From the NCBI GenBank assembly GCA_964626855.1, contig CAZVKJ010000004.1, positions 4,869 to 68,868 of the forward strand: a stretch of DNA of 64,000 nt. The letters run 5' to 3'. The DNA comes from an uncultured Bacteroidales bacterium (GTDB taxonomy: Bacteria > Bacteroidota > Bacteroidia > Bacteroidales > CAIWKO01). This document shows positions 19,416 through 54,674 of this stretch, one piece after another; positions within the stretch are counted from its first letter, which is position 1; each line of letters starts with the position of its first letter. A model generated the notes under the pieces. The model was not told the DNA's origin and made no database searches. It saw nothing but the letters and a program-made list of their open reading frames with translations. A program made the translations under genes and the position numbers.

Positions 19416-19465
19416 ATATTGATAAAAATATTTACCCGATTTAACCTGTCTTATTCATACCCAGT

Positions 19466-21868: not shown

Positions 21869-21994
21869 GATCGAGGTTGTTAGAGACACCCATAAATCCA
21901 TCTGACACTCGGCTAATAAAAAAACTACAGATTATAAGATTTAGACAAAACGAGGTTTGCCGGAACACCTCGCGTTGCTTGTGTATTTGCTGAT

Positions 21995-22758: not shown

Positions 22759-22839
22759 TTCAAAAAATCATTAATGCTTACAATAAAATAATTGATTATC
22801 TTTAACCAAAAAGGTCACCCCCAAATAAAAACCATAATC

Positions 22840-23830: not shown

Positions 23831-23860
23831 CAAAAAAAGCTTTCCTAAAAAAACTGCTCA

Positions 23861-23937
23861 CTGTCAACTGTCAATTGCTAACTGCTAACTACTAACTACT
23901 AACTACTAACTACTAACTACTAACTACTAACTGCCAA
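23861..23937. repeat. 11-unit heptanucleotide tandem repeat (CTRYYAA; six perfect CTACTAA)
   Basis: The units read ctgtcaa ctgtcaa ttgctaa ctgctaa (ctactaa)x6 ctgccaa. The repeat ends 5 nt from the stop codon of the minus-strand DUF2207 gene. Either strand carries stop codons in all three frames. Confidence 0.85.
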
Positions 23938-29539: not shown

Positions 29540-29568
29540 AATATCTATTTATTTAAAAATTCATCACA

Positions 29569-29576
29569 CAAATGTA
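29569..29576 (-). promoter_or_regulatory. candidate -7 promoter box (TACATTTG)
   Basis: Matches TAnnTTTG on the minus strand, 30 nt upstream of the start at 29539. Confidence 0.4.
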
Positions 29577-29673
29577 CAAAAACAATAATCATCTTCTTAT
29601 ATGTTCCCCGTGACATCAGGGCGGCAATCAAACTGATGAAATTCAGATTTGTGACTGTATTCAAAGTGCGATA

Positions 29674-31596
29674 TTATTTATTACAAATCTGTTTTACAAA
29701 ATCAGCCGCCGGTGCGTATCCGAGATCAAGGGCTTTATGAAAGTCTTCGCAGGCACCGTCTATATCTTTAAGGTTAAACTTGGTATTAGCACGGTTGAAG
29801 TAAGCTATCTTGTCTTTTGGATCGATGGTTAAAACTTTATTGCAATCTTCGATAGCTCCATTATAATCCTTGAGCAGGTTCTTTATTCCGGCCCTGTTGC
29901 GGTATGCTTCGCTGTCATTAGGATCCAGGCTGATGGCTTTATTCATATCCTCAAGTGCACCCTGGGTATTTCCCATACTGAATTTCAGCACCGCCCGGTT
30001 GGTGTATCCTTTCGATAACTTTGGATTAAGTTTAAGGGCTTTGTTAAAGTCGCGCAGCCCGGCAGCCGAATCGCCCAACTGGGCATAGGCCATGCCGCGG
30101 TCGCTGTATGTTTCGGCAACCGTAGAGTCTATCTGTATTGACTGAGTCAGGTCACGCAGTGCATTCTGATAATCGTTAAAACCTTTGAGAAGCACCTTCC
30201 CGCGCGCTGCAAGGCTTGGCGCATATTTCTGGAACAACTGTATCGACTTGTTATAGTCGTTCAGTGCATTCTGGTAATCGTTACGCTTATAATAAATATT
30301 GCCACGCATCCAGTAAGCAGGATATCTGTCAGGATATTTTTTTACCACATCATTGAAAAGTACTACACCGTCTTTCCATACACCGATACGGTCCCAGGCA
30401 ACAACAGAATAAACGATGATCAGAAACCAATACCCGAACAAGATCGTTTTTTGAAGGGATTTTTTCTGAATTCCCGCTATCCATTGTCCTGCAATATAAA
30501 ACAACCCGAAGTAGGCGACGTAGGAGTAGCGTTCCGAAGTGATGGTATCGCCGACAGAAATAAGCTGAAGCATGATGGAGATCGCGATGAGAAAGAAGAA
30601 CATCCCGAAAAGCAATTCCCGCCTGAGCGCCGAACGCCTTATGACAAGCCATGCCACCACCAGCAGGAAGGGCACCGAGGCATAATAATACCATGGCAGC
30701 ATATCGCTGTTGGGGTAATAATGCATAACAGACATATGGAAAGGGGCAATAAGCTTGACGATATAAAATGAAACAGAATAGGATAGCATGAATATCCTGT
30801 CAATGAACGAAAATGAGGTGGATACTTCTTTCATCGCGTCCTGTTGTGAGAGAATGGCCAGTATGCCGAAAAGCACGGAAAGGGCCAGGAATGGTACTTT
30901 TTCGAGGAACATCCTTACATTGAGTTTTCGGCTTTTATAGAGGTCAAACACGATGAGGATTACCGGAAGGGTGACGGATGCCGATTTTGATAAAAGAGAG
31001 AGTATAAAAAGTATCAGGCAAATGAAGTAGTATTTGATTTTATAATCTTTCAGGTACAACAGGTATACAATCAATGCCGCTAAGTAAAACATGGTATAAA
31101 GCACATCCTTGAGTTCTGCCGTCCAGGCCACGGATTCCACGTGCATGGGATGAATGGCAAACAGCAGTGAAACGATCAGTGCCGTAAGGCTTTTTCCGCT
31201 TAATTTCTCGGCAAGTTTGTACACAAGAAAAATGTTTACCAGGTGAAACAACACATTTATGATATGATAGGGCATCGGATTAAAGCCGAACAGGCTGTAT
31301 TCGATCATGTAGGTCAGTAATGTCAGCGGAAAATAGTTGCAGTCATAAAATGAAGAAAAGATAATCTTTATAGTATCAAAGCTTAAATTCTTGCTGTAAG
31401 GATTATTAAATAGATAGATATCGTCATCAAGGTTGACAAACCCATTCAAAAATGACCGCAAATATATTATTACTGTAAAAGCCAGAACGGCATAAATGGC
31501 CCAGTGAGGTACCTGTAATGTGTTACTCTGCAGGCTGCTCTTTTTTTGAGGCTTTTGCTGTACGGTGTTTTTTTTATTCTGTTGCTTTACGGCCAT
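29674..31596 (-). CDS. TMTC-like GT-C glycosyltransferase-TPR fusion (paralog 2 of 5)
   Basis: 640 aa. VNLDDDIY, HPMHVESVAWTAELKDVLY, C-terminal TPRs, and a CEDFHKALDLGYAPAADFVKQICNK tail. Confidence 0.7.
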   Translation of the reverse strand: MAVKQQNKKNTVQQKPQKKSSLQSNTLQVPHWAIYAVLAFTVIIYLRSFLNGFVNLDDDIYLFNNPYSKNLSFDTIKIIFSSFYDCNYFPLTLLTYMIEYSLFGFNPMPYHIINVLFHLVNIFLVYKLAEKLSGKSLTALIVSLLFAIHPMHVESVAWTAELKDVLYTMFYLAALIVYLLYLKDYKIKYYFICLILFILSLLSKSASVTLPVILIVFDLYKSRKLNVRMFLEKVPFLALSVLFGILAILSQQDAMKEVSTSFSFIDRIFMLSYSVSFYIVKLIAPFHMSVMHYYPNSDMLPWYYYASVPFLLVVAWLVIRRSALRRELLFGMFFFLIAISIMLQLISVGDTITSERYSYVAYFGLFYIAGQWIAGIQKKSLQKTILFGYWFLIIVYSVVAWDRIGVWKDGVVLFNDVVKKYPDRYPAYWMRGNIYYKRNDYQNALNDYNKSIQLFQKYAPSLAARGKVLLKGFNDYQNALRDLTQSIQIDSTVAETYSDRGMAYAQLGDSAAGLRDFNKALKLNPKLSKGYTNRAVLKFSMGNTQGALEDMNKAISLDPNDSEAYRNRAGIKNLLKDYNGAIEDCNKVLTIDPKDKIAYFNRANTKFNLKDIDGACEDFHKALDLGYAPAADFVKQICNK

Positions 31597-31641
31597 AACT
31601 ATGGGTTTTACATTACAAACTTTAATTGAATATTTCTGTTG

Positions 31642-33585
31642 TCATTTGCAATAATACTGTAAATATTCCGATGCCTGCTTATTACCCAAAGATTGTGCAG
31701 TACGCCAGTCGTTGCAGGCATCGCTGGTTTTTCCCATTCTGTATTTACATGATGCAGCACTTACGAGGGCATTTGAATTTGAGGGGTTGATTTTATAGGC
31801 AGTTTCAAAATCATTGCATGCCTGTTCAAATTTATTTTCTTCGAAGTAGGTCTGCCCCCGGTTTTCATATGATTTATCATCTCTGGCATTTAAGCTGATT
31901 GCCTGGTTAAAACACTGTATTGCGCTCTGGTAATCTTTTTTTGATCTGAGGGCAATGCCTTTATTGTAATATGCAACATTGTGTTCATGATTTATGCGTA
32001 GTGCGTGGTCATACTCAGCGATGGCCCTGTCAAAATCTCCTTTGGTGTAATAAATGATCCCGCGGTTTGTATAACAAATAAAATAGGTTGAATCCACTTC
32101 AATGGCTTTATTGTAATTTTCAAGTGCACGGTCAATATCATTCAACCTGTAATAGCAGTTGCCACGGTTACAATAGGTGATGGCAAATTTGTGGGGAAAC
32201 TTGACGCTTAAGGCTTTATTATAATCTTCGAGAGCCCCCTGTATGTCATTGTTGTACGTCTTTGCATTACCTCTTGCCATATAAGCATGGCCGTAATCCG
32301 GGTATTGGCTGACGATTTTATCAAAAATGGTTACGCCGTCTTTCCAGGTTTTATTTTGCTCCCAGCTGATCACCGAAAATATGATGCAGGCCAAAATGGA
32401 AATGACCAGTGCAGTTGTGCCTTTCACAGGTTTTGCAGCGCCGGGCATTCCGGCAATAAACCAGCCAATGCAGATAAAAAAACCAACGTGGCCCAGGTAA
32501 ACATATCGTTCAGCAACAATGGCATAGCCTACAGGGATCAGTTGTAACATCAGCGCCATGGAAATAATGAAAAACATGCCTCCATAAAAAATATACGGCC
32601 TCTTTTTGTATTGCAGAATTATCATGACAACCAAGGCAATTACAACAGGAAGGCTGGCATAAAAATACCATTGCATCCCATTTCCGGGATAATAATGCAT
32701 GGCAGCAAGCCCGAAAGGGACGATGGTTTTGATGATATAATAGAGCAGGGCATAGGAAGCAATAAATATCCTGTCGAAAAAGGTATAAACAGACACCGTT
32801 GATTCATTTAATGCTTTTTGCCCGGCCTGAGCATAAATGGTTACAATACCTATTGCAATAGCAAGAAGTAAATATGGAATTTTTTCGAGCCATGCAATTT
32901 TGGTCATGGGCCTTTTCAGAATATAATCTGTCAGCAATAAAATGAATGGAAATATCACTCCTGTAGACTTTGAAAGCAACGACAGGAGAAACAGGAAGAA
33001 GGCAATGATGTATCCCGATTTTTTCAGTTTGCCTTGTGCATAAAACGAATAAACGATCATGCCTGCCATGAAGAAGAAGAAGAACAATACGTCTTTTCTT
33101 TCGGTGACCCAGGCAACGGATTCAGTATGCATGGGGTGAACGGCAAATAGCAGTGCAACAACAAAAGAGGCTGTGTTATTTTTTAAAATTATTCGGGCGA
33201 AATAAAAAACAAGTAAAACATTAATAGCATGTAATAATATGTTTTCGGTATGGAAAGCCGTTGGGTTCATGCCAAACAGGGCAAAATCAATTCCAAGCGA
33301 GAGTAAGGTTAAGGGATGGTAATTTCCCAGGTTGTATTGATTAAAATAGTTGAGGAAATTCTGCCAGTTCAGTTGCTGAACCATGGAGTTATCTAGCAGG
33401 TACATGTTATCATCCCAGTTGTTGGCCAGCCCGTTGGTATAGGCTTTGGCGTATACCACCAGCGTTATAATTACCAACAGGGCAGGTAAGATGATGGCCT
33501 GAAAGTTTAGTTCCTTTTTTGAATTTTTACCAATTGATTTAGAATTACTCTTGTTTTTATTTTTCTCTTTTGTACGTTTATCCAT
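31642..33585 (-). CDS. TMTC-like GT-C glycosyltransferase-TPR fusion (paralog 3 of 5, most divergent)
   Basis: 647 aa. NNWDDNMY, HPMHTESVAWVTERKDVLF, TPRs, and a CNDWRTAQSLGNKQASEYLQYYCK tail. Confidence 0.7.
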   Translation of the reverse strand: MDKRTKEKNKNKSNSKSIGKNSKKELNFQAIILPALLVIITLVVYAKAYTNGLANNWDDNMYLLDNSMVQQLNWQNFLNYFNQYNLGNYHPLTLLSLGIDFALFGMNPTAFHTENILLHAINVLLVFYFARIILKNNTASFVVALLFAVHPMHTESVAWVTERKDVLFFFFFMAGMIVYSFYAQGKLKKSGYIIAFFLFLLSLLSKSTGVIFPFILLLTDYILKRPMTKIAWLEKIPYLLLAIAIGIVTIYAQAGQKALNESTVSVYTFFDRIFIASYALLYYIIKTIVPFGLAAMHYYPGNGMQWYFYASLPVVIALVVMIILQYKKRPYIFYGGMFFIISMALMLQLIPVGYAIVAERYVYLGHVGFFICIGWFIAGMPGAAKPVKGTTALVISILACIIFSVISWEQNKTWKDGVTIFDKIVSQYPDYGHAYMARGNAKTYNNDIQGALEDYNKALSVKFPHKFAITYCNRGNCYYRLNDIDRALENYNKAIEVDSTYFICYTNRGIIYYTKGDFDRAIAEYDHALRINHEHNVAYYNKGIALRSKKDYQSAIQCFNQAISLNARDDKSYENRGQTYFEENKFEQACNDFETAYKINPSNSNALVSAASCKYRMGKTSDACNDWRTAQSLGNKQASEYLQYYCK

Positions 33586-33708
33586 TTTGGTTTTCTTTAA
33601 TCGAAAAAACTATCATTATTTAATTTATATATGCATCTTATATGTGCATCCTGATTTGTGCCAGGGATTCAAGGTGCCTTAATAAAGAAATACGATTGAG
33701 CTACATCA

Positions 33709-35649
33709 TTATTTACAATATTTTTTTATCATGTCACCTGCATTTTGGTCGCCGAGGTTTAGCGCGCTGTTCCAGTCTTCGCAGGCGCCGCTTGTATCAC
33801 TGGTATTCAGTCGTGCCATTCCCCGGTTGAAAAACAATTGGTTGTCGTCAGGCTTAAGTTGGAGCGCCGCGTTGTAATCATTGATGGCTCCCCGGTAATC
33901 TTTTATTAATGTTTTTATATTGGCACGGTTGCAATAACTGTTGCTTTCTTTTGGATTCAGCAATATTGCTTTATCAGCATCTTCAATGGCTCCCGAAATG
34001 TTTCCCATGATGGCTCTGAGAATGCAACGGTTATTGTAGGCGCTTTGCATTTTCGGATCCTTTTTTATGGCTTTGTTAAAATCGCGTAATGCAGCAGCAG
34101 TATCATTCATGCCCTGGTAAGCCATGCCCCTGTTGTTGAAGACATCGGCTGCAGTAGTATCCATTGTCAATGATTTATTAAGGTCAGCCAGTGCCGCCTG
34201 GTATTGTTTTTTGTCGATAAGGATTTTACCACGACTTGCAAGGCATTCATTGATGTTGGGGTTTAATTGCAATGCCATATTAAAATCTTGTAATGCCCCA
34301 TCATAATCTTTCAGTTCATTTTTGAAAAACGCTCTTGTTTTGAATGCTACCGGGCTTTCCGGGTATTTTTTTACCACATCGTCGAACAACGTGATGCCAC
34401 TTTTCCAGACACCAATCCTGTCCCAGGTTAAATAGGAGAACATTAAAATAAAGATTCCACTCACAATCATAGCAAGTTTCAAACGTTCCGGCCTCTGAAT
34501 TTTCGAGATCCAATGGCCAATGATAAAGAAAGTGCCGATGTACGAGACATAGGTGTACCGTTCTGAAGTTATGGCTACTCCTACAGAAATAACCTGGAGC
34601 ATGATGGATATCACGATAAGGAAAAATGCCGTGCCGAATATTTTTTCACGCCGCATCCGGGAAGGTTTTACAATAATAAAGATGATAAATAACAAAAATG
34701 GCAGTGATGCAAAGAATTCCCACGGCAGGGTATTGGTCGCAAACTTATCGGGATAATAGTGCATGGCCGATAAGTTGACGGGCGCAATCATCATGATGAT
34801 GTAATAAGAGATTGTATACGTAAATAAGAAAATACGTTCAAAGACCGTATAAAACGGGGTAAAGTCCGACAATGATTCTTCCTGGGAAAACAGGGCAATA
34901 ATTCCAAAAAGCAAGGATAACAGGAAGAATGGAACTTTTTCGGCAAACAATTTAACGCTGAACTTTCTTTTCTTATAAATATCGATAGCCAGCATGATCA
35001 CCGGAAGAGTCACGGAAGCTGATTTAGAAAGAAGTGATAAAATAAACAGCAGTATGCAAACCCAATAATATCTCGCCTTGAAGTTAAATCCGGATTTCAT
35101 GAAATTAAGGTATGCTGTCAATGCACCTAAATAAAAGACGGTATACAGCACATCTTTTCGTTCGGCAATCCAGGCCACGGATTCAACATGCATGGGATGA
35201 ACCCCGAATATGGCCGCAACAAATACAGCAGTAAATTCCTGCCCACTAAGCTTTTTGATAAAAAGGTAGACGAGAAAGACATTGGCAAGATGGAGCAACA
35301 TATTGAGCAGGTGATATGGAAACGGATTTAATCCGAACAAGCGGTATTCAAAAAGATAGGTGAGCATCGACAACGGCTGGTAGTTCCCCACATAGAATGA
35401 CGAAAAAATTGTTTTAATCCCGTTAAAACTGAAATCCATGATGTCTTTATTCTTACACACGTAACCATCATCATCCCAGGTAACAAAACCATTGAACAGC
35501 GATCTTAGATAAATTACTGCTGTGAGCGTAAGTACTGCATAAATGGCCCATGGAGGAATCTTCCAGGCCTTTTTTTGTACTCCTGTCACCGGGGTGGCGG
35601 GAGCTTTTTTTACTTGAATTTGCTTTTTATATTTTGGTTTTTCTGCCAT
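33709..35649 (-). CDS. TMTC-like GT-C glycosyltransferase-TPR fusion (paralog 4 of 5)
   Basis: 646 aa. VTWDDDGY, HPMHVESVAWIAERKDVLY, TPRs, and a CEDWNSALNLGDQNAGDMIKKYCK tail. Confidence 0.7.
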   Translation of the reverse strand: MAEKPKYKKQIQVKKAPATPVTGVQKKAWKIPPWAIYAVLTLTAVIYLRSLFNGFVTWDDDGYVCKNKDIMDFSFNGIKTIFSSFYVGNYQPLSMLTYLFEYRLFGLNPFPYHLLNMLLHLANVFLVYLFIKKLSGQEFTAVFVAAIFGVHPMHVESVAWIAERKDVLYTVFYLGALTAYLNFMKSGFNFKARYYWVCILLFILSLLSKSASVTLPVIMLAIDIYKKRKFSVKLFAEKVPFFLLSLLFGIIALFSQEESLSDFTPFYTVFERIFLFTYTISYYIIMMIAPVNLSAMHYYPDKFATNTLPWEFFASLPFLLFIIFIIVKPSRMRREKIFGTAFFLIVISIMLQVISVGVAITSERYTYVSYIGTFFIIGHWISKIQRPERLKLAMIVSGIFILMFSYLTWDRIGVWKSGITLFDDVVKKYPESPVAFKTRAFFKNELKDYDGALQDFNMALQLNPNINECLASRGKILIDKKQYQAALADLNKSLTMDTTAADVFNNRGMAYQGMNDTAAALRDFNKAIKKDPKMQSAYNNRCILRAIMGNISGAIEDADKAILLNPKESNSYCNRANIKTLIKDYRGAINDYNAALQLKPDDNQLFFNRGMARLNTSDTSGACEDWNSALNLGDQNAGDMIKKYCK

Positions 35650-35758
35650 AGTTTATTCGATAACATTACGATGTCAACCAATAATTTATAAAGTTATAAC
35701 GATGTAAGTAAATAATTCCGGAATGCATAATACATAGATATGATTCGATCATAAATCA

Positions 35759-37684
35759 TCATTTGTTACAAATAAGATTAATCATATTTTCTGCATTCTT
35801 GTCACCAAAGCTTAATGACTTATGCCATTCCTCGCATGCACCTGAAGTGTCATTTACATTCAATTTTGCCATGCCCAGGTTGAACATCACCTCATTATCT
35901 TTTGGTTTGAGCCTGAGAGCGGCGTTATAATCTTCAATAGCTCCAGGGTAATCTTTTTGCAGGGTTTTGATGTTTGCCCTGGTGCAATAGCTGACACTTT
36001 CCTCGGGGTCTATACTGATGGCTTTGTTTACATCTTCAATAGCTCCCGGGATATTTCCCATGATGGCTTTCAGGATGCTGCGGTTGTTATAGGCGTGATA
36101 CATATCAGGGGTCATACTGATGGCTTTATTAAAATCACGCATGGCGCCTGATGTATCATTAAGCCCCTGGAGTGCCATACCCCGGTTATTAAAGGCGTTG
36201 GCCTTGGAAGAATCGAGATCAATAGCCAGGTTCAGGTCATTGAGCGCATTTTTATAGTCTCTGAATTCTACCAGAACACTGCCGCGTGTAACCAAACAAT
36301 CCTGGAACAAAGGGTTTAATGAAAGCGCTTTGTTGCAATCCTGAAGTGCTCCCTGGAAATCATCATGAGATTTTTTAAAAATAGCCCTGGTGTTATATCC
36401 GTCTGGATTGTCGGGGTATTTTTTCACCACATCATCAAAAAGAGTAAAACAACTGTCCCAGACTTTTATCCTGTCCCAGCTAAGGTATGAAAACATGATC
36501 AGAAATAATGCGCTTACCACAAGCATAAAACGTTTCAGGGTGGGCTTCGGTATTTGCACAATCCATTGCCCGGCAATATAAAATAACCCGATATATGAAA
36601 TATACGAGTATCGTTCTGCTGCAATGGCATTGCCCACCGAAATGATCTGAAGCATGATGGAAATTACGATAAGGAAAAAGAAAACGCCGAAGAGCTTTTC
36701 GCGACGCAAGCTTGTTTTTCTTACCAGCCACACCACAAGCAGCAGTAAAAACGGAAGCGCCGCATAAAACATCCAGGGTAATGATTTGCCATGGGTCAAA
36801 GGATAATAATGCATGGCGGATAATTTGAATGGCGCAACAAGCTTGACAATATAAAACGACAGTGTATAACAGAAATAAAAAAATTTGTCGATAATAGAGG
36901 TGGAGGCTTCACCCCGCGCTTCTTTTTGTGAAAGCAAGGCAATGATTCCAAATAATAATGCCAGGGCAAAAAACGGGATTTTTTCTACAAGCATTTTTGC
37001 ATTGAACTTCCTGTTTTTATATAAATCCATTGCAATCATCAGCACAGGCAGTGTTACCGCGGCCGATTTAGAGAGCAATGATAAAATAAACATGAACAGG
37101 CAAATCCAGTAATGTTTCCATTTTAGGCCTGATGTAAGATAGTTTACATAAGCGATCAATGCTGCCAGGAAAAACAATGAGTACATCACATCTTTACGCT
37201 CAGCAACCCAGGCTACCGATTCAACATGCAAGGGGTGTAATGCAAACATAGCTGCCGCAAATAACGCCGTAAACCTTTGTTCACTCAACTTTTCAACAAA
37301 TTTGTAAACAAGAAATGTATTGACCAGGTGAAGAAATACGCTCGTAAAATGATAGGGAAGGGGGTTCAGCCCAAAAAAACGGTATTCAAAAAAGTAAGTC
37401 AACATGGTGAGCGGCTGATAATTGGCCACATAGTAAGAAGAGAATAATGTTTTTATGCCTTCAAAACTGAAATTCCTGATGTCGAAGTTCTTGGTAACGT
37501 AACCACTGTCGTCCCATTCTACAAATCCATTGAATAAAGCCTGTGAATAAACCAGGGCCGTGATAACTAGTACTGCATATATTGCCCAGGGAGGAACCGG
37601 AATGGTTTTTTTTTGAAAATTATTTTTCAGGGAAATGGTCTTTTGTGGAATAGTTTTCTTTTTATTGCTGGGTTTAGCGGGCAT
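35759..37684 (-). CDS. TMTC-like GT-C glycosyltransferase-TPR fusion (paralog 5 of 5, first in transcription order)
   Basis: 641 aa. VEWDDSGY, HPLHVESVAWVAERKDVMY, TPRs, and a CEEWHKSLSFGDKNAENMINLICNK tail. Confidence 0.7.
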   Translation of the reverse strand: MPAKPSNKKKTIPQKTISLKNNFQKKTIPVPPWAIYAVLVITALVYSQALFNGFVEWDDSGYVTKNFDIRNFSFEGIKTLFSSYYVANYQPLTMLTYFFEYRFFGLNPLPYHFTSVFLHLVNTFLVYKFVEKLSEQRFTALFAAAMFALHPLHVESVAWVAERKDVMYSLFFLAALIAYVNYLTSGLKWKHYWICLFMFILSLLSKSAAVTLPVLMIAMDLYKNRKFNAKMLVEKIPFFALALLFGIIALLSQKEARGEASTSIIDKFFYFCYTLSFYIVKLVAPFKLSAMHYYPLTHGKSLPWMFYAALPFLLLLVVWLVRKTSLRREKLFGVFFFLIVISIMLQIISVGNAIAAERYSYISYIGLFYIAGQWIVQIPKPTLKRFMLVVSALFLIMFSYLSWDRIKVWDSCFTLFDDVVKKYPDNPDGYNTRAIFKKSHDDFQGALQDCNKALSLNPLFQDCLVTRGSVLVEFRDYKNALNDLNLAIDLDSSKANAFNNRGMALQGLNDTSGAMRDFNKAISMTPDMYHAYNNRSILKAIMGNIPGAIEDVNKAISIDPEESVSYCTRANIKTLQKDYPGAIEDYNAALRLKPKDNEVMFNLGMAKLNVNDTSGACEEWHKSLSFGDKNAENMINLICNK

Positions 37685-44436: not shown

Positions 44437-45180
44437 ATGAAAGCAGTTTGTAAAATTTGGATGTTGTGCCTGGCCACAATGTTGTTTGTCCGCTGTGCCT
44501 CAAATGAGACGGCAAATTCAGACACTGTTAAGCAATCCGAGATTTATCAGAATTATTCGGTAAGTTATAATAATGCCGAAAAAGAGCTGACAGCTACAGC
44601 ATCATTCCGTTTCGGAGGGGCTAACGGAACCACCTTATTGCTGGTGAAACCCTCCGGGGTGCTCTTTGAAAACCAGGAGATGCCGAACGAAAATAATGTT
44701 TTTTCAGGAACTTATTATGAAATGAATATCCAGACCGACCTGAAAGCCGGTTATACATTTGTATACACTGATGGTGACGGTAAAACCTATACCAACCATG
44801 CTGTTGTTATTCCTGCCGAAATAAAAAATTGCCCGTTGCAGATAGATAAAAACAAAGGCTTTTCAGTAGAATGGGATTATCCCTTGCAAAATGGCGAGAC
44901 CATAAACTTATATATCGAAGATAAATCAAACAATTCATCATTTGTTTTTAATAATGTGGTAGGGTCAAAAAGCATGAAAATGAATACAGATGAATTGAAA
45001 AATATTACGCCTGGCGAGGTAGATATATACTTAGTGAGGTCGAATGCTTCAGCACTTGCTAATGCAACGCATCTGGGAGGCAAGATGACGGCAAGCTATA
45101 CCTCGCGAAAGATTGAGGTGAAACTTGTTGGACAAGAGCCAAAGAATGATGAAGAAGATACTTTAGGTAATAATAAATAG
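44437..45180 (+). CDS. hypothetical lipoprotein
   Basis: 247-aa ORF with a lipobox-like signal, MLCLATMLFVRCAS. Confidence 0.5.
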   Translation: MKAVCKIWMLCLATMLFVRCASNETANSDTVKQSEIYQNYSVSYNNAEKELTATASFRFGGANGTTLLLVKPSGVLFENQEMPNENNVFSGTYYEMNIQTDLKAGYTFVYTDGDGKTYTNHAVVIPAEIKNCPLQIDKNKGFSVEWDYPLQNGETINLYIEDKSNNSSFVFNNVVGSKSMKMNTDELKNITPGEVDIYLVRSNASALANATHLGGKMTASYTSRKIEVKLVGQEPKNDEEDTLGNNK

Positions 45181-45196
45181 TGTTTGCACGGATTAT

Positions 45197-45776
45197 GGAT
45201 AGCACACTTATTCAGGATTGAATATTATGACCCGCAAGGCGGGTCAAATGTGAATAACCCCGTACAAAGTGCGGGGTAAGAAAAACACGAATCCCACAAT
45301 CCTAAAAGGATTGAATAATAAAATAAATAAGAGTACTTACACACAAATTCGGTATCAGTGTTTAATGACAGAATATTATTTTGAAGTGTCGGAACGAATA
45401 AATTATAATTTTGGGTATTGGATAGCACACTTATTCAGGCTTGAATATAATGACCCGCAAGGCGGGTCAAATGTGAATAACCCCGTACAAAGTGCGGGGT
45501 AAGAAAAACGCGAAGTCCCCAATCCTGAAAAGGATTGAATAATAATATAAATATGAGTACTTACACACAAATTCTTTATCAGTGTTTAATGACAGAAAAT
45601 TATTTTGATGTGTCGTAACGAATAAATTATAATTTTGGGTATTGGATAGCACATTTATTTAGGATTGAATATAATGACCCGCAAAGCGGGTCAAATGTGA
45701 ATAACCCCGTACAAAGTGCGGGGTAAGAAAAACGCGAAGTCCCCAATCCTAAAAAGGATTGAATAATAATATAAAT
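45197..45776 (+). repeat. tandem ~224-bp repeats (2.6 copies) carrying REP hairpins and decoy copies of the RAYT-2 5' end
   Basis: Units start at 45197, 45420 and 45644. Each contains GACCCGCaagGCGGGTC, CCCCGTACaaaGTGCGGGG and AATCCTaaaAGGATT hairpins. Units 1 and 2 also carry (a/t)GAGTACTTACACACAAATTC..TATCAG, a copy of the first ~10 codons of RAYT-2. Confidence 0.8.
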
Positions 45777-46223
45777 ATGAGTACTTACACACAAATTCTG
45801 TATCAGTTGGTTTTTTCAACCTGGAATCATGAAAAAACGCTTGATGAAAAAGGACAGGAATCTCTATATAAGTATATTTCAGGAATTCTTAAAAATAAAA
45901 ATTGTCATCTATACCAGATAAATGGTGTAGAGAACCACATTCATATTGTAACCCATATACATCCATCAGTCCCTCTTGCAAGCCTGATTAAAGATATAAA
46001 ACTTGCCTGTTCTTCATGGAATAAAATGACCGGTAATTTTAAAAACTTCAAGGGGTGGCAAGAAGGGTACGGTGCTTTTACCTATTCAATAAAAGATAAA
46101 AACCGACTGATTAATTATGTAAAAGAACAGAAAAACCATCACAAAATTAAATCGTTCAGAGAAGAATATAAGGAGTTACTAATAGAGCACGGGGTTGAGT
46201 TTGATGAAAAATATCTTCTTTGA
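45777..46223 (+). CDS. REP-associated tyrosine transposase (RAYT-2; IS200-like Y1 HUH enzyme)
   Basis: Start moved to ATG 45777 (MSTYTQILYQLVFST). HUH motif in ENHIHIVTH and Tyr region WQEGYGAFTYS. 148 aa. Confidence 0.8.
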   Translation: MSTYTQILYQLVFSTWNHEKTLDEKGQESLYKYISGILKNKNCHLYQINGVENHIHIVTHIHPSVPLASLIKDIKLACSSWNKMTGNFKNFKGWQEGYGAFTYSIKDKNRLINYVKEQKNHHKIKSFREEYKELLIEHGVEFDEKYLL

Positions 46224-46560
46224 TGGTTCAACCCTTATCAGGGTTGGATGGTACATTGTGTTTTACCCCGCACTTTGTACGGGGTTATTCATATTCAATC
46301 CCTTCGGGATTTAACTTGATAATTCGCAAATTGGGCTAAAGCCAGGAATTTTAGTATATTATAATAGAGGCTGTATCAAAAGTCAGAATCAGTGTTTATT
46401 TTGCCATAGTGAACCTTCGTGTGTACCTTGTGTCCCTTTGTGGTTCAACCCTTATCAGGGTTGGATGGTACATTGTGCTTTACCCCGCATTCGATACGGG
46501 GTTATTCATATTCAATTCCTTAGGGATTGAACCTGATAATTCACAAATTGGGCTATTAGT
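46224..46560. repeat. two ~217-bp repeats downstream of RAYT-2 with REP hairpins inverted relative to the upstream set
   Basis: Units start at 46224 and 46441. They contain AACCCTtatcAGGGTT, TTACCCCGCACTTTGTACGGGGTTATTCA (the reverse complement of the upstream TGAATAACCCCGTACAAAGTGCGGGGTAA) and AATCCCttcGGGATT. Confidence 0.8.
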
Positions 46561-48025: not shown

Positions 48026-50497
48026 ATGAAGGACATGATCAGAATTTTATGCCCGTTATTGTTTATTGTTTTTTTTATTCAGGAGAATTATGCCCAGAAA
48101 AAAACAGCCCGTGCGGCCCGGTTTGCATTACCTCCTAAAATAGATGGCCTGCTGAATGATGATTGCTGGCGTTCATGCGATTCCATTGATGATTTCACCC
48201 AATATGTGCCCGTGTATAATGTAAAACCTTCGCAACAGACTGTTGTAAGGATAGGATATGATGATGAAGCTGTGTATATCAGTGCCATGTTGTATGACAG
48301 CAGCCCCGACAGCGTTTTTGCCGAAATCGGTAACCGTGATGACGACCTGAATGCAGATCATTTTTCCGTGCAATTTGATACATACAATATGCAGGAGGAT
48401 GCCTATACTTTTTTGGTATGGGCATCGGGAACACAATATGATTACAGGAAGAATGACGCTACATACAATGCTGTATGGCAGAGCGCTGTAAAGATTAATG
48501 ATCAAGGCTGGGCCTGCGAGATGAAGATCAGCTATTCAGCCCTGCGTTTTCCCAAGACCAAAGAGCAAACCTGGGGACTGCAGTTTTCGAGAGGTATACG
48601 CCGGCATCGCGAAACCGACCAGTGGGCGCTGCAAATAAAGACCAATGTTAATGCTCTGAAGGATTGGGGCGTGCTTACCGGAGTCAGCGAAGTTAAACCA
48701 CCGCTGCGCTTATCCCTTACCCCGTTTCTTTCGCTGTATGGTGATCACTATCCGTATAACGAAAAAGGAAAAAGTAATTTCTCCTATTCATTTAGCGGTG
48801 GGCTTGATCTGAAATACGGCATCAATGAAAGTTTTACACTGGATGTGACGTTGCTGCCCGATTTCAGCCAGGTACAGTCGGACTACCAGATAAAGAATAT
48901 TACCGCTTTTGAAACAGTATATGAAGATTACCGGCCATTTTTTACGGAGGCAATCGATATGTTCAAGGAGGGCGACCTGTTTTACACCCGTAGGATAGGG
49001 CGAATCCCCGATGGTTTCTTCAGCGTTTATGATTCATTGGCCGATGGCGGGATCGTGAAGAAAAATCCCGGGCAGGCCAAGCTGCTCAACGCGGTAAAAT
49101 TTTCGGGCCGTACTAAAAAAGGAACCGGCATCGGGATTTTCAATGCCCTCACCAATAACATGTATGCTGTTTTGGAGGATTCACCGGGAAATACGCGAAA
49201 AATACTAACTGAACCGCTGACGAATTACAACATTATGGTTCTTGACCAGATTCTGAAAAATAACTCGAAAATATATTTTGTCAATACCGATGTATTACGC
49301 GCAAAAAATTATGACGACGCCAATGTATCCTTGTTTGGGTTGACACTGTATGACAAAAAAAATATGTTTCAGTTTGCCGGCTCAGCGGCCATGAGCCTGA
49401 AAATTCATAAGCCCGACAGCGCCGGCGGAAAGATCAGCAATACGATGGGATTCAAAAGTGACCTTAGCTTTGGCAAGGTCAGCGGTAATTTTCAGTTCAG
49501 CATCTACAGAAATGAAATGAGCGATACCTGGGATGCCAACGATATGGGGGTTACCTTGCAGAACAACTTAACCACCACCGGATTTACGCTGAAATATAAT
49601 ATTTTTGAGCCTTTCTGGAAGTTCAGGGAAATGTACTCCCAGATCAATGTTTATTATAAGGAAAATTTTCTGGCCAAAAGGCCAGAGGAGTTCAGGATTG
49701 AACTGAGCAATAACTTTACTACAAACAAGTACCTTACCGTATGGGAAAGCATTGTCGTTAACCCGATCATAGTTTATAATTTTGCCGATACACGCGTGCC
49801 GGGGCGATTTTTCAGGATGGACAGGTGGTACTATGCCAACCTTGGTTTTTCGTCCGATTACCGCAAGACGTTTGCCCTCGACATGAACTTTGAATACTGG
49901 CAGGATATACTTGGCGATGGCCAGTATTTCGGATTGACAACGTCTCCGATCTTCAAAATAAACAAGCATTTTACATTTAAAATTACCAACAAGTATGAGG
50001 ATAACGGCAATGATGTCGGTTATGCCGATATTGATGAGCTTGACAATATTATAATCGGAAAGCGCGACATCACTACCGTTGAGAATACCATCACGGCGCG
50101 CTATATGTTTAAAAACAGCCTGTCGCTAAGCCTTACCGCAAGGCATTACTGGTCGAAAGGGCGTTACTCAGAATTTTATAAGGTGGATAATGACGGTGTG
50201 CTGATCACCGATCCCTTGTATCACCCCGGCGGCGCCTATGATTTTAATTTTAATGCCTTCAATATTGATTTGATGTTTTATTGGGAATTTGCACCTGGCA
50301 GCAGCCTGAATGTAACTTATAAAAATAACCTTGTTCATGATGGTACTGTGGTGATTCCATCATATTTCAGAAATTTCGGAAGTATATTTTCAGAAAAACA
50401 GCTAAATTCGCTCTCGGTAAAGGTCATATATTACCTGGATTATTTACAGGTGAAAAACCTGGTAAACAAGAAAAGACTGAAAAAAAACACGACATGA
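48026..50497 (+). CDS. CBM9-like / DUF5916-type outer-membrane-associated protein
   Basis: 823-aa ORF. Signal peptide, N-terminal [13 protein letters not shown] carbohydrate-binding-family-9-like region, and a long beta-rich C-terminal part. Family call is by eye. Confidence 0.55.
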
Positions 50498-51147
50498 TAA
50501 AGGCAGCAGGTATTCAAAAATCATATGGTACGCTTAAAGTTTTAAAGGGCATTGATCTAAATATTGCCAAGGGCGAAATTGTTGCAATATCAGGCGCTTC
50601 AGGCGCCGGTAAAACGACCTTGCTGCAAATTATAGGCACGCTCGACCGGGCCGATTCCGGCTCTGTTGAAATCAATGGCACCAGAATAAGTACGCTGAAC
50701 GATAAAAAGCTTGCGGCCTTCCGTAACCGGCATATAGGTTTTGTATTTCAGTTTCATCATTTGCTTCCGGAGTTCACCGCTTTTGAAAATGTATGCATTC
50801 CTGCTTATATTGCAAAGGCTTCCAGAAAAGATGCGGAGGGCAGGGCAAAAGAAATCCTGGGTTTTTTGGGGCTTACTGAACGCTTGTCACATAAGCCGGC
50901 CCAGTTGTCGGGCGGTGAGCAGCAGCGTGTGGCCGTGGCGCGTGCCCTCATCAATAACCCGGATATAGTCCTTGCCGATGAGCCCTCAGGAAACCTGGAT
51001 TCAGAAAATGCCAAAGAACTTCACAAACTGTTTTTTGATCTGAGGGATAAGTTTAACCAGACCTTTGTAATTGTAACCCATAACATGGAATTCGCGGGCA
51101 TGTCTGACCGCACGCTGTTTATGAAGGACGGGCTGATACAGCAATAA
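50494..51147 (+). CDS. ABC transporter ATP-binding protein (LolD/MacB-type)
   Basis: 217 aa. Walker [10 protein letters not shown], signature LSGGEQQR, Walker B IVLADEP. ATGA overlap with the upstream gene. Confidence 0.85.
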
Positions 51148-51280
51148 TTTTCTTGAAAGATATGAACTATTGGTGGCAAACTATCATTGTCCGTATGCTG
51201 ATTTATTGGACTTATTGAATTGTCTGGCGGTGGGGCGGCTGCTAGATTAGCCATCGTTTATTTTCTCAAATCTCTTTCAT

Positions 51281-52174
51281 TTAATAATTGAAATTCATAT
51301 TAATATTAGCCAATTTTTCTTCAAAAACCTTTTCTACCAGATAAGGTGCGGTTTTGTATATCAAATATGTCCTCCGGAATATTCCATGATGCGTTTCTAA
51401 TTCATACCATGTGATAAAACATTTATCTGGTAGCATTTTGATTTTAATATACGAATCAATTTCAAATAAATTTATACTATCAATAATTTTAAAGGTAAAA
51501 AGTTGAAAAGATGGTTTTTCTGTTCCAAATCCCATAAAAGAATAATTATTATCTTTATAATCTTCTATAATTTTAATCATCTCCGAATCCGAACAAATAA
51601 CATATCTCTGAGCTTCAAGTGAGTGCCATTTTAATGCAAACAATTCTCCCATTTGATTAAACAAAAGGTATTGTAAAAATCCTTCTTCAGTATTATCAGG
51701 TGTTACATTATTAAAAGCTCTCCTCTGAGGGTTATCAAGAAAATTGTTGAAGAAGAGACGTCGGTTGTTTTCCACAGAATCCTTATTTGGAACATTCTTT
51801 TCAATAATTTTTTGCCCAATATATTTATTAAGATCAAAATCTTTTTCTTTAACGTATATAATCGGGGTACCATCTAAGAAATAATCGGCAAAATACACTG
51901 AACATTCAAATCCTTGGCGTATCTTAAGTTTATCAAACATTTGCATATAGACATCAATATCAAATGTTGATGAATCAATAATATTTGGCATATAATAAGT
52001 ATTCGTTTCAGATGTGTCCCTGCATATTTCCACTGAATCTTGATAAGCTTGAACTTTTTTTATAAAATCACAATAATTCTGCGCTTCGATATAATGCGTC
52101 AACAATAAAATGGACAGGAAACAAATTAAAATTTCCTTTATAAAAAGTTTTTGCTTTGATTTTCTTTGTTTCAT
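51281..52174 (-). CDS. hypothetical secreted protein (AT-rich islet gene 3)
   Basis: 297-aa ORF with a signal-like ILICFLSILLLTHYIEAQ. No recognisable motifs. Preceded by the duplicated ~180-bp module. Confidence 0.5.
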   Translation of the reverse strand: MKQRKSKQKLFIKEILICFLSILLLTHYIEAQNYCDFIKKVQAYQDSVEICRDTSETNTYYMPNIIDSSTFDIDVYMQMFDKLKIRQGFECSVYFADYFLDGTPIIYVKEKDFDLNKYIGQKIIEKNVPNKDSVENNRRLFFNNFLDNPQRRAFNNVTPDNTEEGFLQYLLFNQMGELFALKWHSLEAQRYVICSDSEMIKIIEDYKDNNYSFMGFGTEKPSFQLFTFKIIDSINLFEIDSYIKIKMLPDKCFITWYELETHHGIFRRTYLIYKTAPYLVEKVFEEKLANINMNFNY

Positions 52175-52195
52175 AGACTTTTAAATGGTTTCTAA

Positions 52196-52376
52196 TAGTC
52201 AGTGCATGCTTCCTATGCCGCCACTGCCCCGTTAAAATTTCATATAAAGATACAGCATTATTTATCAATTTGGACGTGTCTTCTGAAATTTTTTCGGAGG
52301 TATGGAAACAAATATTTTGTTAGTAGTCAGAGACTACTTATTATTAAGTCCGAAGTCGCAGACTTCGGACAACAAG
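52196..52376 (-). repeat. ~180-bp duplicated upstream module (copy 1)
   Basis: About 85% identical by eye to 54075-54251. Read on the minus strand it runs: hairpin GTCCGAAGTCtgcGACTTCGGAC, then hairpin AGTAGTCtctGACTACT, then a conserved ~120 nt ending ~22 nt before the ATG. Confidence 0.75.
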
Positions 52377-52407
52377 TTACCACCAGTTATTCTTTCAATT
52401 CCAAATG

Positions 52408-52995
52408 TCATAGTTTTTCAATTTGGTCAATTATAGCCTTAAACAGGCAATAAACATCTTGCATCTCATTCAACGAATTCACAGAGCGGCCAACCATTCC
52501 CATAATTTTTAATTGTTTTGATTCTCTTTCACATGATATTGAAAAAATATTTGTTTTCAGGATTAAAGGAATTATTGAATCTGCATTTAGGATGTTTTTA
52601 ATTATCCTTTTATCAGAACCTTTAACTAAATATTTTTTGTCAAAATCAGGATTAGAAATCTCAATATCATGGTTGCTAAAAACCTTTAAAAATCTGTCAG
52701 CAAAATCTTCTTGGGTAATAGTAAAGTCAACATTCTTGTCTGAATTGATTATGCAAACCACTTTAAAAGGGTGGGTGTCCGATTCGTTAAACTCAATCTG
52801 TCCGTTTTCAAAAGGAACTATCAAATTGAATAAAGTCAAATCTCTTGAAACAGTTTGTTTCACCTTAAATGATCCACCTGTCTGTTTTGCAAAGTCAGTC
52901 CAGAACGACTGTTTTGCAGAAACATCAACAAACCCTTTTGTCTGGGTTACAAATAATTGTCTCAAAATATTGTCTGTTGGTTTCTTCACTTTCAT
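52408..52995 (-). CDS. hypothetical protein (AT-rich islet gene 2)
   Basis: Start moved to MKVKKPTDN at 52995. The longer ORF would read through a GC-rich structured intergenic element. No signal peptide and no recognisable motifs. Confidence 0.45.
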   Translation of the reverse strand: MKVKKPTDNILRQLFVTQTKGFVDVSAKQSFWTDFAKQTGGSFKVKQTVSRDLTLFNLIVPFENGQIEFNESDTHPFKVVCIINSDKNVDFTITQEDFADRFLKVFSNHDIEISNPDFDKKYLVKGSDKRIIKNILNADSIIPLILKTNIFSISCERESKQLKIMGMVGRSVNSLNEMQDVYCLFKAIIDQIEKL

Positions 52996-53146
52996 ATAAT
53001 TGGTGGTAACGGTGGGGGCTTTGCAGCGGGCGGAACTTGAACATTCCCGCCGACTCACCCCGTCCATAAAGTTAATTAATATTTCCATTCGTTTCAGTTT
53101 TTTCCCGTTTTCAGCCGGAGGCAAGGCCACTGTGTTGTATGCCGTT

Positions 53147-54046
53147 TTATTTCCTATATTTTGTAAAAATTTTTTTCAATATTTTCTCATTCTTTGAATA
53201 TTTGTAAAAATTTTCCTCTTTTAATAAAGAACCTAGGACTAAATCATTAATTTTCTCATTATCTTGATTTGTTTCAGATAAACATGTTAAGTGATTTAAA
53301 AGAGTTTCATAATATTTATCAATATAGTAGTCCTTATAACTTTGAACCTTTTCTTGAGATTCAATATTAATTTGAAAATCAGGAAAATTTAAATCTAAAT
53401 ATTGATAATAAGGAAGCGAATTGAACCTTGGGAACTTATTGATAATCTCCATCGCTAAATCATACTTTGGGGGTTTTGCTATATTTATAAATCCCCATAT
53501 TTGAAGTCCACAGAGTCTCATTACCTCTAGAAAAAATATTGATTTTTCTGTATCATCCTTTAACCCGTATGAATTTAAATCAAAATTAATTTTTGACATG
53601 TCAAAAGGCTTTACTTTATTCCCGTAACAAGCAAAGAGCATTGAATAATAATTATCTACCAAATCTTGGGACAATAGGTTCTTGTTTTCCAAATCTTTTA
53701 TTATCTCATTGTTGTTTCTTGGATTGTCTTCTCTCAGATTATAATTAATGTGAACAATAATATACAAGAATTTCAAATCAACATCACTTGGTCTTTTCAA
53801 ATATGTGTCTGACAATATTGAACTATTTTCTCGTATTGCCTCTCGGATAAATTTAGCAGGATATGCTAACGTTGTTGAATCATATTTATTTAAACTTTCT
53901 AGGAATTCAGATGGGGGATTATTTCTAAACATAAATTGTCTATATGCTTTTCCTAATTCAATTAATCCATCATTAATTTGTCCAAATGAAATCTGAGAGG
54001 TAAAAATCAGAATTCCGATAAAGCTTTTTAATATTTTCTTTGTCAT
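53147..54046 (-). CDS. hypothetical secreted protein (AT-rich islet gene 1)
   Basis: 299-aa ORF with signal MTKKILKSFIGILIFTSQISFGQ. Preceded by copy 2 of the duplicated module. Confidence 0.5.
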   Translation of the reverse strand: MTKKILKSFIGILIFTSQISFGQINDGLIELGKAYRQFMFRNNPPSEFLESLNKYDSTTLAYPAKFIREAIRENSSILSDTYLKRPSDVDLKFLYIIVHINYNLREDNPRNNNEIIKDLENKNLLSQDLVDNYYSMLFACYGNKVKPFDMSKINFDLNSYGLKDDTEKSIFFLEVMRLCGLQIWGFINIAKPPKYDLAMEIINKFPRFNSLPYYQYLDLNFPDFQINIESQEKVQSYKDYYIDKYYETLLNHLTCLSETNQDNEKINDLVLGSLLKEENFYKYSKNEKILKKIFTKYRK

Positions 54047-54074
54047 ATTTTAGTTATTTATGTCTTTTTACTAC

Positions 54075-54251
54075 TAGTCAGTGTCTGCTTTCTATGCCGC
54101 CCAACCCCGTTAAAATTTCATATAAAGATACGGCATTATTAATCAATCTTGACATATCTTATTAAATTTTCGGCGTGGTGGAATCAAAATGTTGTTAGTA
54201 GTCAAAGACTACTTTTTATTAAGTCCGAAGTCGCAGACTTCGGACAACAAG
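54075..54251 (-). repeat. ~180-bp duplicated upstream module (copy 2)
   Basis: See 52196-52376. It has the same two hairpins and the same conserved leader, ending ~28 nt before ATG 54046. Confidence 0.75.
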
Positions 54252-54317
54252 GTGCAAATATTTTTGTTGATATTCTTTTGAAAAAACAGTAGAAACAGCA
54301 TCAGAAGCGAGCGGGGT

Positions 54318-54674
54318 CTATTTCAGCAATATTTCATTTATTGCCCTGGTAAACTCGGCTTTGGGCATGGCGCCCATGCTCATCTGCGGCTGGCCATTCA
54401 ACGGGCAGAATAATATACTCGGGATGCTCTGAATGCCGAATGCTGCCGACAGTTCCTCTTCTTCTTCAGTGTTCACCTTGTAAATATCAACTTTGCCTGC
54501 AAACTCTTTTGATAATTCTTCCAGGATGGGGGCCACCATTTTGCATGGTCCGCACCAGTCGGCATAAAAATCAATGATACAAGGCAAAGTTCCCTTGAAT
54601 TTCCATTCGGTCTCCGCTTCATAATCGAATACCTTTTCTTTAAATGATTCTTTTGTCAAGTGTTCCATATCCAA
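54318..54674 (-). CDS. thioredoxin
   Basis: 118 aa, with the WCGPCK active site in a typical thioredoxin context. Confidence 0.9.
   Translation of the reverse strand: MDMEHLTKESFKEKVFDYEAETEWKFKGTLPCIIDFYADWCGPCKMVAPILEELSKEFAGKVDIYKVNTEEEEELSAAFGIQSIPSILFCPLNGQPQMSMGAMPKAEFTRAINEILLK

Follow-up and report, generated by a model that had tools for sequence, protein, structure and literature searches.

Three AT-rich gene units bordered by dispersed intergenic repeats in an uncultured Bacteroidales bacterium, and a bipartite palindrome family found across Bacteroidota

The stretch of DNA analysed here (64,000 nucleotides of contig CAZVKJ010000004.1, positions 4,869 to 68,868, from an uncultured Bacteroidales bacterium; called the window below) contains an islet of three AT-rich genes between a thioredoxin gene and a gene for a LolD-like ABC ATPase, and the islet is a mosaic, in which the homology of each gene to its relatives in other metagenomes starts and stops exactly at the edges of intergenic repeats. 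Genes 1 and 3, numbered in the order of transcription, are each preceded by a copy of the same segment of about 185 nt, the module, which begins with two hairpins (H1 and H2) and continues with a spacer, a promoter-like core and a leader; gene 2 is preceded by a different repeat, the mid element. We regard it as moderately probable that these are acquired genes that are each expressed from a host-type intergenic repeat, and that the module combines a double hairpin for the 3′ end of the upstream gene, similar to repetitive extragenic palindromic (REP) sequences, with a promoter and leader that serve the gene behind it. In conclusion, the islet is a group of routine accessory genes with borrowed expression signals in an unusually clean modular build, and not a defence-gene array.

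The borders of the blocks were set by comparing the DNA of the islet with the surroundings of homologues from other metagenomes. Module copy 1, gene 1, the 119-nt mid element, gene 2, module copy 2 and gene 3 follow each other in this order and abut within a few bases (Table 1), and the 3′ end of module copy 1 (54068) is the first base of the homology of gene 1 to its relative at locus L131. The cassette-like layout that the initial annotation of this DNA had noticed is thus borne out. The same is true of its description of three low-G+C minus-strand genes that interrupt a housekeeping stretch: the open reading frame (ORF) list has three minus-strand entries between the LolD-like gene and the thioredoxin gene, with a G+C content of 0.267 for gene 1, 0.316 for gene 2 and 0.281 for gene 3, compared to 0.391 for the window and 0.43–0.47 for the flanking genes. 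The homologues of genes 1–3 in other metagenomes (76–81% identity on nucleotide level, 64–82% on protein level) reside in unrelated neighbourhoods. At locus L132, the homologue of gene 3 lies between genes for a type IX secretion system (T9SS) protein and a DEAD-box helicase, at L146 methyltransferase and permease genes adjoin the homologue of gene 2, and at L131 (Logan SRR29758288, 1-10737) the nearest homologue of gene 1 from another organism, which is 82% identical, is found within twelve co-directional genes, the majority of them without a Pfam match. No repeated intergenic module was seen in this run of genes, which also includes a gene for a 768-aa protein with nine internal repeats of ~123 nt. 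A search for the genes that the module precedes, as suggested in the initial annotation, placed the full module upstream of none of the examined homologues of genes 1, 2 and 3, and its hairpins turned out to be dispersed across Bacteroidota rather than specific to the islet. In every host, the homologous genes are AT-richer than their surroundings (G+C 0.29–0.34 versus 0.34–0.43 in the remainder of the locus). As the contexts are unrelated, the homologues free of the module, and the G+C content low everywhere, genes 1–3 behave like single-gene units of an AT-rich accessory pool that move independently of each other.

Table 1. Features of the islet and related elements in the window. Positions are those of the window.
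Feature	Position	Strand	Remarks
Module copy 1	54068-54251	-	H1-H2 double hairpin, spacer, promoter-like core, proximal leader
Module copy 2	52189-52376	-	H1 52348-52370, H2 52322-52338, core 52232-52262, -7-like box 52245-52252
H1 palindrome, copy 1	54223-54245		GTCCGAAGTC-TGC-GACTTCGGAC; within model R1 match 54196-54249
H2 hairpin, copy 1	54197-54213	-	AGTAGTC-TTT-GACTACT, 10 nt after H1
Promoter-like core, copy 1	54110-54140	-	AATAATGCCGTATCTTTATATGAAATTTTAA; -7-like box TATCTTTA at 54123-54130
Mid element	53015-53133	-	119-nt dispersed repeat; -7-like box TAACTTTA at 53067-53074
Gene 1	53147-54046	-	299 aa, predicted exported, predicted all-alpha
Gene 2	52408-52995	-	195 aa, without signal peptide; distant DUF3137 relative
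Gene 3	51281-52174	-	297 aa, predicted exported, predicted alpha/beta, rare family
Module 1 block	54251-54068	-	related to module 2
Gene 1 unit	54068-53142	-	76% nucleotide identity to locus L131
Mid element block	53133-53015	-	82% to locus L148
Gene 2 unit	53011-52373	-	78-80% nucleotide identity to loci L145, L151
Module 2 block	52376-52189	-	related to module 1
Gene 3 unit	52189-51246	-	81% nucleotide identity to locus L132
Thioredoxin gene	54318-54674	-	upstream flank by direction of transcription; Pfam PF00085, E 1.2e-23
LolD-like ABC ATPase gene	50494-51147	+	convergent flank downstream of the islet; PF00005, E 9e-35
Third, diverged H1-family member	19463-19525	+	GTTCGAAGTT[23-nt insert]AACTTCGAAC; R1 16.6 bits, E 0.004-0.009
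Further core copy	5575-5605	+	65 nt upstream of Kelch / T9SS protein gene; without hairpins
Shorter core copy	3315-3339	+	directly upstream of GNAT acetyltransferase gene
IS200-like Y1_Tnp gene	45777-46223	+	PF01797, E 4e-18; motifs NHIH / WQ / YVKEQKNHH
Second Y1_Tnp gene	22792-23307	+	PF01797, E 5.5e-25

Within the source population the islet is invariant. All contigs with an identical thioredoxin or LolD gene also hold the islet (about 10 contigs from several anaerobic-digester samples), and these contigs share at least 99.99% identity and therefore represent one clonal population. Short-read unitigs of the source organism (L005, L010, L011 and L137; Logan) stop exactly at H1 (window positions 52370, 54245 and 54222), so that the duplicated palindrome evidently fragments assemblies at this place.

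The duplication of the module, described in the initial annotation as ~180 bp with about 85% identity, was recovered by BLAST with 85.6% identity over 188 nt (E 2e-56; 83% by MAFFT columns). The edges are sharp at both ends, and the identity is unevenly distributed, with 97% in H1-H2, 61% in the spacer, 97% in the core, 79% in the proximal leader and 33–43% in the flanks. Between the end of the similarity and the ATG, 21 nt remain in copy 1 and 14 nt in copy 2; the leader is thus indeed duplicated, but it ends closer to the genes than the ~22–28 nt that had been assumed. The two hairpins are as strong as they had been judged by eye: the folding energy is −16.1 kcal/mol (z −5.6) for H1 (GTCCGAAGTCtgcGACTTCGGAC) and −7.4 kcal/mol (z −3.6) for H2 (AGTAGTCtytGACTACT). 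A search of the window for H1 that allowed up to 3 mismatches gave just the 2 islet sites, compared to 0.00 expected by chance. A third copy of the full module was not found in the window and ~45 kb of other contigs, nor was the full module found in the other collections searched, including PLSDB and a metagenome collection that missed even the source contig. By inspection, the ends of the two copies showed neither terminal inverted repeats nor target-site duplications. Genes 1 and 3 are no paralogues (BLASTP E 1.2; predicted all-alpha versus alpha/beta folds), and a common ancestry of the downstream genes was thus rejected as a candidate.

The part of the module that most likely acts as promoter is the core of 31 nt (AATAATGYYGTATCTTTATATRAAATTTTAA), which recurs in the window outside of the islet. 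The copy at 5575-5605 is 95% identical to module 2 over 39 nt, a shorter copy precedes a GNAT acetyltransferase gene, and the core is also found at locus L135, 80 nt ahead of a 191-aa ORF; at all three of these non-islet sites it is co-oriented with the downstream gene. The one contig that a scan of metagenomes with the core matched was not the source contig, and the scan is hence silent on the copy number. The consensus of promoters recognised by the Bacteroidetes sigma factor ABfr consists of TAnnTTTG at −7 and TTTG at −33 (PMC7366714), and the boxes TATCTTTA of the module and TAACTTTA of the mid element agree with 7 of the 8 positions of the −7 element. They fit TAnnTTT, are co-oriented with the genes and lie 65–80 nt before start codons, which in the islet means 76 nt for gene 1, 71 nt for gene 2 and 70 nt for gene 3; they differ from the sigma-ABfr consensus in that they end with A instead of G and, in the module, in that they are embedded in the longer conserved core.

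Gene 2 is served by neither copy of the module. The element that precedes it was described as GC-rich and structured, of which the first is correct (G+C 0.50 at 53015-53133), whereas its fold has no excess structure over shuffled sequences (z +0.59). A second copy (82% identical) is present on another large contig of the same metagenome (Ga0116247_10000218; L148, 5050-5167), where it occupies a convergent intergenic gap, 13 nt past the stop codon of a gene. This copy came to light by way of a spurious 58-aa ORF (P0277) that gene callers place over the mid element in three samples (L148, L149 and L150) and whose frame is fused to gene 2 in the window as an N-terminal extension of 45 codons. The 240-aa gene 2 with GTG start that is called by the Joint Genome Institute (JGI) is overlong, because the alignment of the homologues begins with the ATG at 52995, where 152 of 152 cluster representatives start. 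We rejected the idea that the mid element is a leader of the gene 2 family, as L145, L146 and L151 lack it ahead of their homologues and no same-strand gene lies downstream of its other copy, and also the idea of a third copy of the module, as the two cannot be aligned as a whole and the shared part is one short motif recognised post hoc. The mid element is therefore a second dispersed intergenic repeat rather than a gene 2-specific leader. Gene 2 is also bracketed by a 15-nt inverted repeat (52996-53010 / 52376-52390, GTTACCACCAATTAT / ATAACTGGTGGTAAC, 14 of 15 positions complementary), which reaches exactly to the start codon at one end and to the boundary of module 2 at the other. The flanks are conserved in homologues of other genomes, but their complementarity is not (11 of 15 in L145, 8 of 15 in L151), and chance alone would give about 0.4 such pairs; a mobile gene 2 cassette with 15-nt terminal inverted repeats was thus discarded. 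In L145, the gene 2 unit is flanked by a 10-nt direct repeat, GTTGTTAATT.

The double hairpin of the module belongs to a family that extends far beyond this genome. An exact scan for GTCCGAAGTC-NNN-GACTTCGGAC in one genome per GTDB species found H1 at no fewer than 119 places; this count and all following ones refer to the matches listed. The hosts are many species of Mucilaginibacter and other Sphingobacteriaceae, Chitinophagaceae (Agriterribacter, Terrimonas) and Saprospiraceae, and in addition one metagenome-assembled genome (MAG) each of Lentimicrobiaceae, Bacteroidales and Flavobacteriaceae, and a few MAGs of Chloroflexota. H1 is multicopy, with at least ~17 loci in one Mucilaginibacter chromosome and at least ~20 in one Lentimicrobiaceae MAG, and 124 of 128 instances are intergenic. 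Convergent gaps (33 of the 128 instances) are far more frequent than divergent ones (9), with 55 in tandem gaps and no bias in orientation, and H1 therefore favours the 3′ ends of genes. In 72 instances a second hairpin comes after H1, and the linker between the two is exactly 10 nt long in 57 of these 72, with the consensus GAYTATGCNT (T4 in 57/57, A5 in 55/57, T6 and G7 each in 54/57) and a 5′ flank of (C/T)GCT. The stem of H2 is GTAGTC/GACTAC in 30 of the 72 elements, which is the commonest type and also that of the window, and GTAGTT/AACTAC in 22; compensated variants are GGAGTT/AACTCC, CGGGAC/GTCCCG, ATAGTC/GACTAT and GTAGAC/GTCTAC. A covariance model (R1) of 47 H1-H2 elements, all from other genomes, matches both copies of the window on the gene strand, ungapped and in full length (52321-52374 with 51.0 bits, 54196-54249 with 50.9 bits, E ~4e-13).

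A third, diverged member lies 48 nt past the stop codon of a gene for an 1110-aa protein and has two compensated stem pairs. The 23-nt insert in its loop consists of the small hairpins GCACCataGGTGC and CTCCtacGGAG, which resemble the TAC-loop repeats of an array at 21960-23900, and a lone H2-like hairpin (GTAGTTTGCAACTA) follows 130 nt beyond at 19654-19666. In the Lentimicrobiaceae MAG CAZFPO01 (L045, L050, L052, L070, L107) and in Mucilaginibacter (L046, L083), H1 or its half-sites form local tandem runs, such as ...GACTTCGGACAACGAATCTGAGACTTCGGACAACGA... or three full H2-H1 units spaced by ~100 nt, which suggests local amplification of the H1 element. In Rfam 15, the window had no match at gathering score and the region 51000-54500 nothing relevant at E up to 10, and tRNA was the sole match in 15 H1 loci. 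As far as the literature is searchable, a search with the sequence of H1 gave unrelated primers only, and H1 is absent from the supplements of two REP surveys; the family has apparently not been described so far.

Among known elements, H1-H2 comes closest to the REP palindromes, their mosaics (bacterial interspersed mosaic elements, BIMEs, or REPINs) and the associated tyrosine transposases (RAYTs, also TnpA-REP; PMC2817692, PMC3116915, PMC6006769, PMC3733652). Like these, it is a short, strong, intergenic and multicopy palindrome that is enriched at 3′ ends and sometimes locally tandem, it comprises two hairpins at fixed spacing, and GTAG, one form of the guide tetranucleotide of REPs (GTAG/GTGG), opens H2 in both copies of the window and in 55 of the 72 elements. 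Furthermore, the host genome has Y1 (HUH) genes amid other REP-like hairpins. However, GTAG is base-paired within the stem of H2 and not placed at the unpaired 5′ foot of a hairpin, H1 lacks it, and the 64-kb window holds 3 copies (2 exact, 1 diverged). REPs have been described as species-specific (PMC6006769), whereas the 20-nt stem of H1 is identical across several orders of Bacteroidota. There is also no RAYT adjoining H1 in the sites listed, and thus no cognate Y1 gene within the same palindromes, by which a REPtron is recognised; a tblastn search with the Y1 protein of the window found no Y1_Tnp in the 119 H1 loci, a weak sampling that covers 8 kb around each site.

The initial annotation stated that the window has no recombinase, which holds for integrases within 10 kb on either side of the islet but not for the two IS200-like Y1 (HUH) genes, both of which are flanked by hairpins unrelated to H1-H2. 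The first lies in a REPtron-like locus (45081-46555), behind three tandem repeats of ~224 nt, each made of the first ~25 nt of the Y1 gene and the hairpins TGACCCGCaagGCGGGTCA and ACCCCGTACaaagtGCGGGGT, and ahead of two 115-nt repeats; its motifs resemble the TnpA-Y1 subclass 1.2, which is listed without REPs (PMC6006769). The second is inside a non-coding array of ~1.9 kb (21960-23900) with units of ~125 nt and the hairpins CCCCTACGGGG, AGCCCTACGGGCT and ACCGCGTAGCGGT.

None of the three proteins could be assigned to a characterised family in Pfam, NCBIfam, PADLOC, PHROGs or the PDB, aside from a weak link of gene 2 to DUF3137 (PF11335), which is matched by 10 of 32 family members with a best E of 8.4e-6. 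The gene 1 family is widespread in Bacteroidota, with more than 125 full-length homologues of 41–84% identity, including Flavobacterium, Hymenobacter and Dysgonomonas, and none of 44 members had a Pfam match. The gene 3 family has 15 homologues. The AlphaFold2 (AF2) models of gene 1 (all-alpha, predicted local distance difference test score (pLDDT) 92.3) and gene 3 (alpha/beta, pLDDT 79) match no fold in the PDB (best E 0.4 for gene 1), nor do their sequences match there. The products of genes 1 and 3 are predicted to be exported, with an N-terminal signal peptide and a conserved glutamine behind it; Q23 is present in no less than 90% of the gene 1 family, and Q32 is invariant in that of gene 3. 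This agrees with the ‘Q-rule’ for signal peptidase I substrates of Bacteroidetes. A phage or plasmid origin was rejected, as H1 and the core were not found in IMG/VR, the module and the H1-H2 consensus were not found in PLSDB, and PHROGs gave no match.

In the reading that we favour, three AT-rich single-gene units, coding for two exported proteins and one cytoplasmic protein, would have been acquired independently, and each would have become linked to an intergenic repeat of host type as the source of its expression signals. H1-H2, positioned right after the upstream gene (the thioredoxin gene or gene 2), would most likely be a 3′-end hairpin of that gene, i.e., a transcript stabiliser, a weak terminator or an insulator, and the core with its −7 box would be the promoter of genes 1 and 3, followed by an unstructured leader of 65–75 nt. 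Gene 2 would be served by the other dispersed repeat, the mid element, with its similar −7-like box at the same distance. The module may have been copied once as a unit, after which the hairpin stems and the core would have been kept at 97% identity while the spacer went down to 61%.

Several observations weigh against this reading. Promoter and terminator functions, copying as a unit and a later selection on hairpins and core are what we infer from sequence comparisons, and with two copies such a selection is indistinguishable from two conserved elements that merely lie at a similar distance. The number of full modules rests on the 64-kb window and ~45 kb of other contigs. At the core, the −33 TTTG is absent at canonical spacing, and a TTG is found 13 nt upstream instead. 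The minus-strand sequence after H1 is UUAAUAA and that after H2 is AACAAC, and thus neither hairpin has the U-tract of an intrinsic terminator on the gene strand, and a strong terminator role is therefore doubtful; only H2 in the plus-strand direction, where the T-runs TTTTTATT (copy 1) and TTATTATT (copy 2) follow, agrees with the terminator rule. Lastly, the linkers of the window copies (TTAATAAAAA and TTAATAATAA) lack the TATG of the family, and the 5′ flank is TGTT and not CGCT, which makes them divergent family members. The assignment of insulator or terminator plus promoter and leader functions in the initial annotation thus remains reasonable with regard to the position of the hairpins at 3′ ends elsewhere and to −7-like boxes 70–76 nt from the ATGs.

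The main alternative for the origin of the module is a non-autonomous mobile element, comparable to miniature inverted-repeat transposable elements (MITEs) or REPINs, that carries an outward promoter, inserted twice upstream of unrelated genes, and was mobilised in trans, possibly by an HUH/Y1 enzyme. This agrees with the sharp ends of the module, with the multicopy and locally tandem nature of the H1-H2 family in other genomes, with the two Y1_Tnp genes in a window whose genome propagates REP-like repeats, and with the different REP-like hairpin that sits inside the loop of the third H1-like copy. Nevertheless, we consider it unlikely: the ends lack the terminal repeats and target-site duplications by which MITEs are defined, only the two full copies were found, the 61% identity of the spacer implies that any transposition would be old, none of the 119 H1 loci listed has a Y1_Tnp gene, and the Y1 genes of the window keep company with other hairpins. 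Correia elements of Neisseria, the pneumococcal BOX and RUP elements and the enterobacterial ERIC sequences are bounded by terminal inverted repeats and target-site duplications and number tens to hundreds per genome. The module is similar to them as an intergenic repeat of ~100–200 nt that brings hairpins and an outward promoter beside unrelated genes, but for the full module we have seen neither such ends nor a high copy number. A further idea, to which we give a rather slim chance, is that a DNA-processing system of several Bacteroidota orders, so far unrecognised (HUH/Y1 or another site-specific enzyme), has H1-10 nt-H2 as its recognition site, and that the islet reflects the joining of single-gene units to a ready-made hairpin-plus-promoter module by this system, i.e., a cassette system that is not an integron; if real, a shared system of this kind would explain the identity of the 20-nt stem across orders.

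It also appears very unlikely that the module acts as RNA, be it as riboswitch-like cis leader of genes 1 and 3 or as plus-strand antisense small RNA that ends with H2 and its T-run. The whole module does fold better than shuffled sequences (z −3.3 and −4.7), the plus-strand terminator is predicted in both copies, and the three islet leaders and the L148 copy have in common a motif CTTTAT..ACGGG..GSMGG behind the −7-like box, a pattern that was derived from these same sequences. Yet the low fold energies are due to H1 and H2, as the leaders by themselves show no excess structure over shuffled sequences (z −1.1 and −0.6), conservation within the module is lower in the leader, a conserved plus-strand promoter was not seen, the T-run after H2 is no feature of the family, in which the linker consensus differs, and the Rfam searches mentioned above gave no match. 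Highly improbable, finally, is a true cassette array of the integron type or of the recombinase-associated acquired interbacterial defence (rAID-1) type, built by a recombinase that captures genes at repeats and coding for orphan immunity factors, which was the analogy drawn in the initial annotation and which we do not uphold. The search for rAID-1 clusters demands a 5′ XerD-like recombinase at least 44% identical to BF9343_RS08045 and two or more co-directional downstream genes with a G+C content of up to 41% (bioRxiv 10.1101/471110; Ross et al. 2019), and the islet, in a Bacteroidota host as well, has co-directional genes of low G+C content (0.27–0.32) separated by repetitive intergenic sequence, in agreement with two of the three search criteria. 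Unit boundaries that coincide with repeats, two presumably exported products, as is the case for many periplasmic immunity proteins, and the co-directional run of mostly Pfam-free genes around the closest gene 1 homologue in L131 would also fit. However, the 5′ position is taken by the thioredoxin gene, and no XerD-like or other integrase is found within 10 kb on either side (JGI Pfam calls) or in ten further ORFs that were scanned. The islet has three genes only, its module is common to just two of the three intergenic regions and was found in two full copies, the L131 array has no such module, and the islet is fixed in the ~10 contigs of its population. No homology of the proteins to known immunity families was found in the libraries searched (PADLOC, Pfam, NCBIfam, PHROGs, and sequences and folds of the PDB). 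Integron cassettes are usually promoterless. With them, the islet shares single-gene units, sharp borders and imperfect palindromes in between, but IntI and attI are missing, the junctions CACCTTGTTGTCC, GGTAACTTGTTG and CCACCGTTACCACC do not fit the GTTRRRY core, each gene has an apparent promoter of its own, and the homology of gene 2 ends before H1-H2, so that the hairpins are not carried along with the gene in other genomes as attC sites would be.

Apart from the islet, the window contains a tandem array of five co-directional minus-strand ORFs of 640–647 aa (27611-37684), which are shown by internal repeat families to be paralogues with ~60–80% DNA identity.

In summary, the islet illustrates neatly how single genes of foreign origin may be connected to a Bacteroidota genome through a duplicated host promoter module. 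The more useful by-product is the palindrome family, a 54-nt bipartite element whose first stem is identical across Sphingobacteriales, Chitinophagales, Saprospirales and Bacteroidales. This breadth of conservation, unlike that of REPs, which are normally species-specific, points to a conserved protein or RNA partner, or to a mobile element with a broad reach in Bacteroidota.

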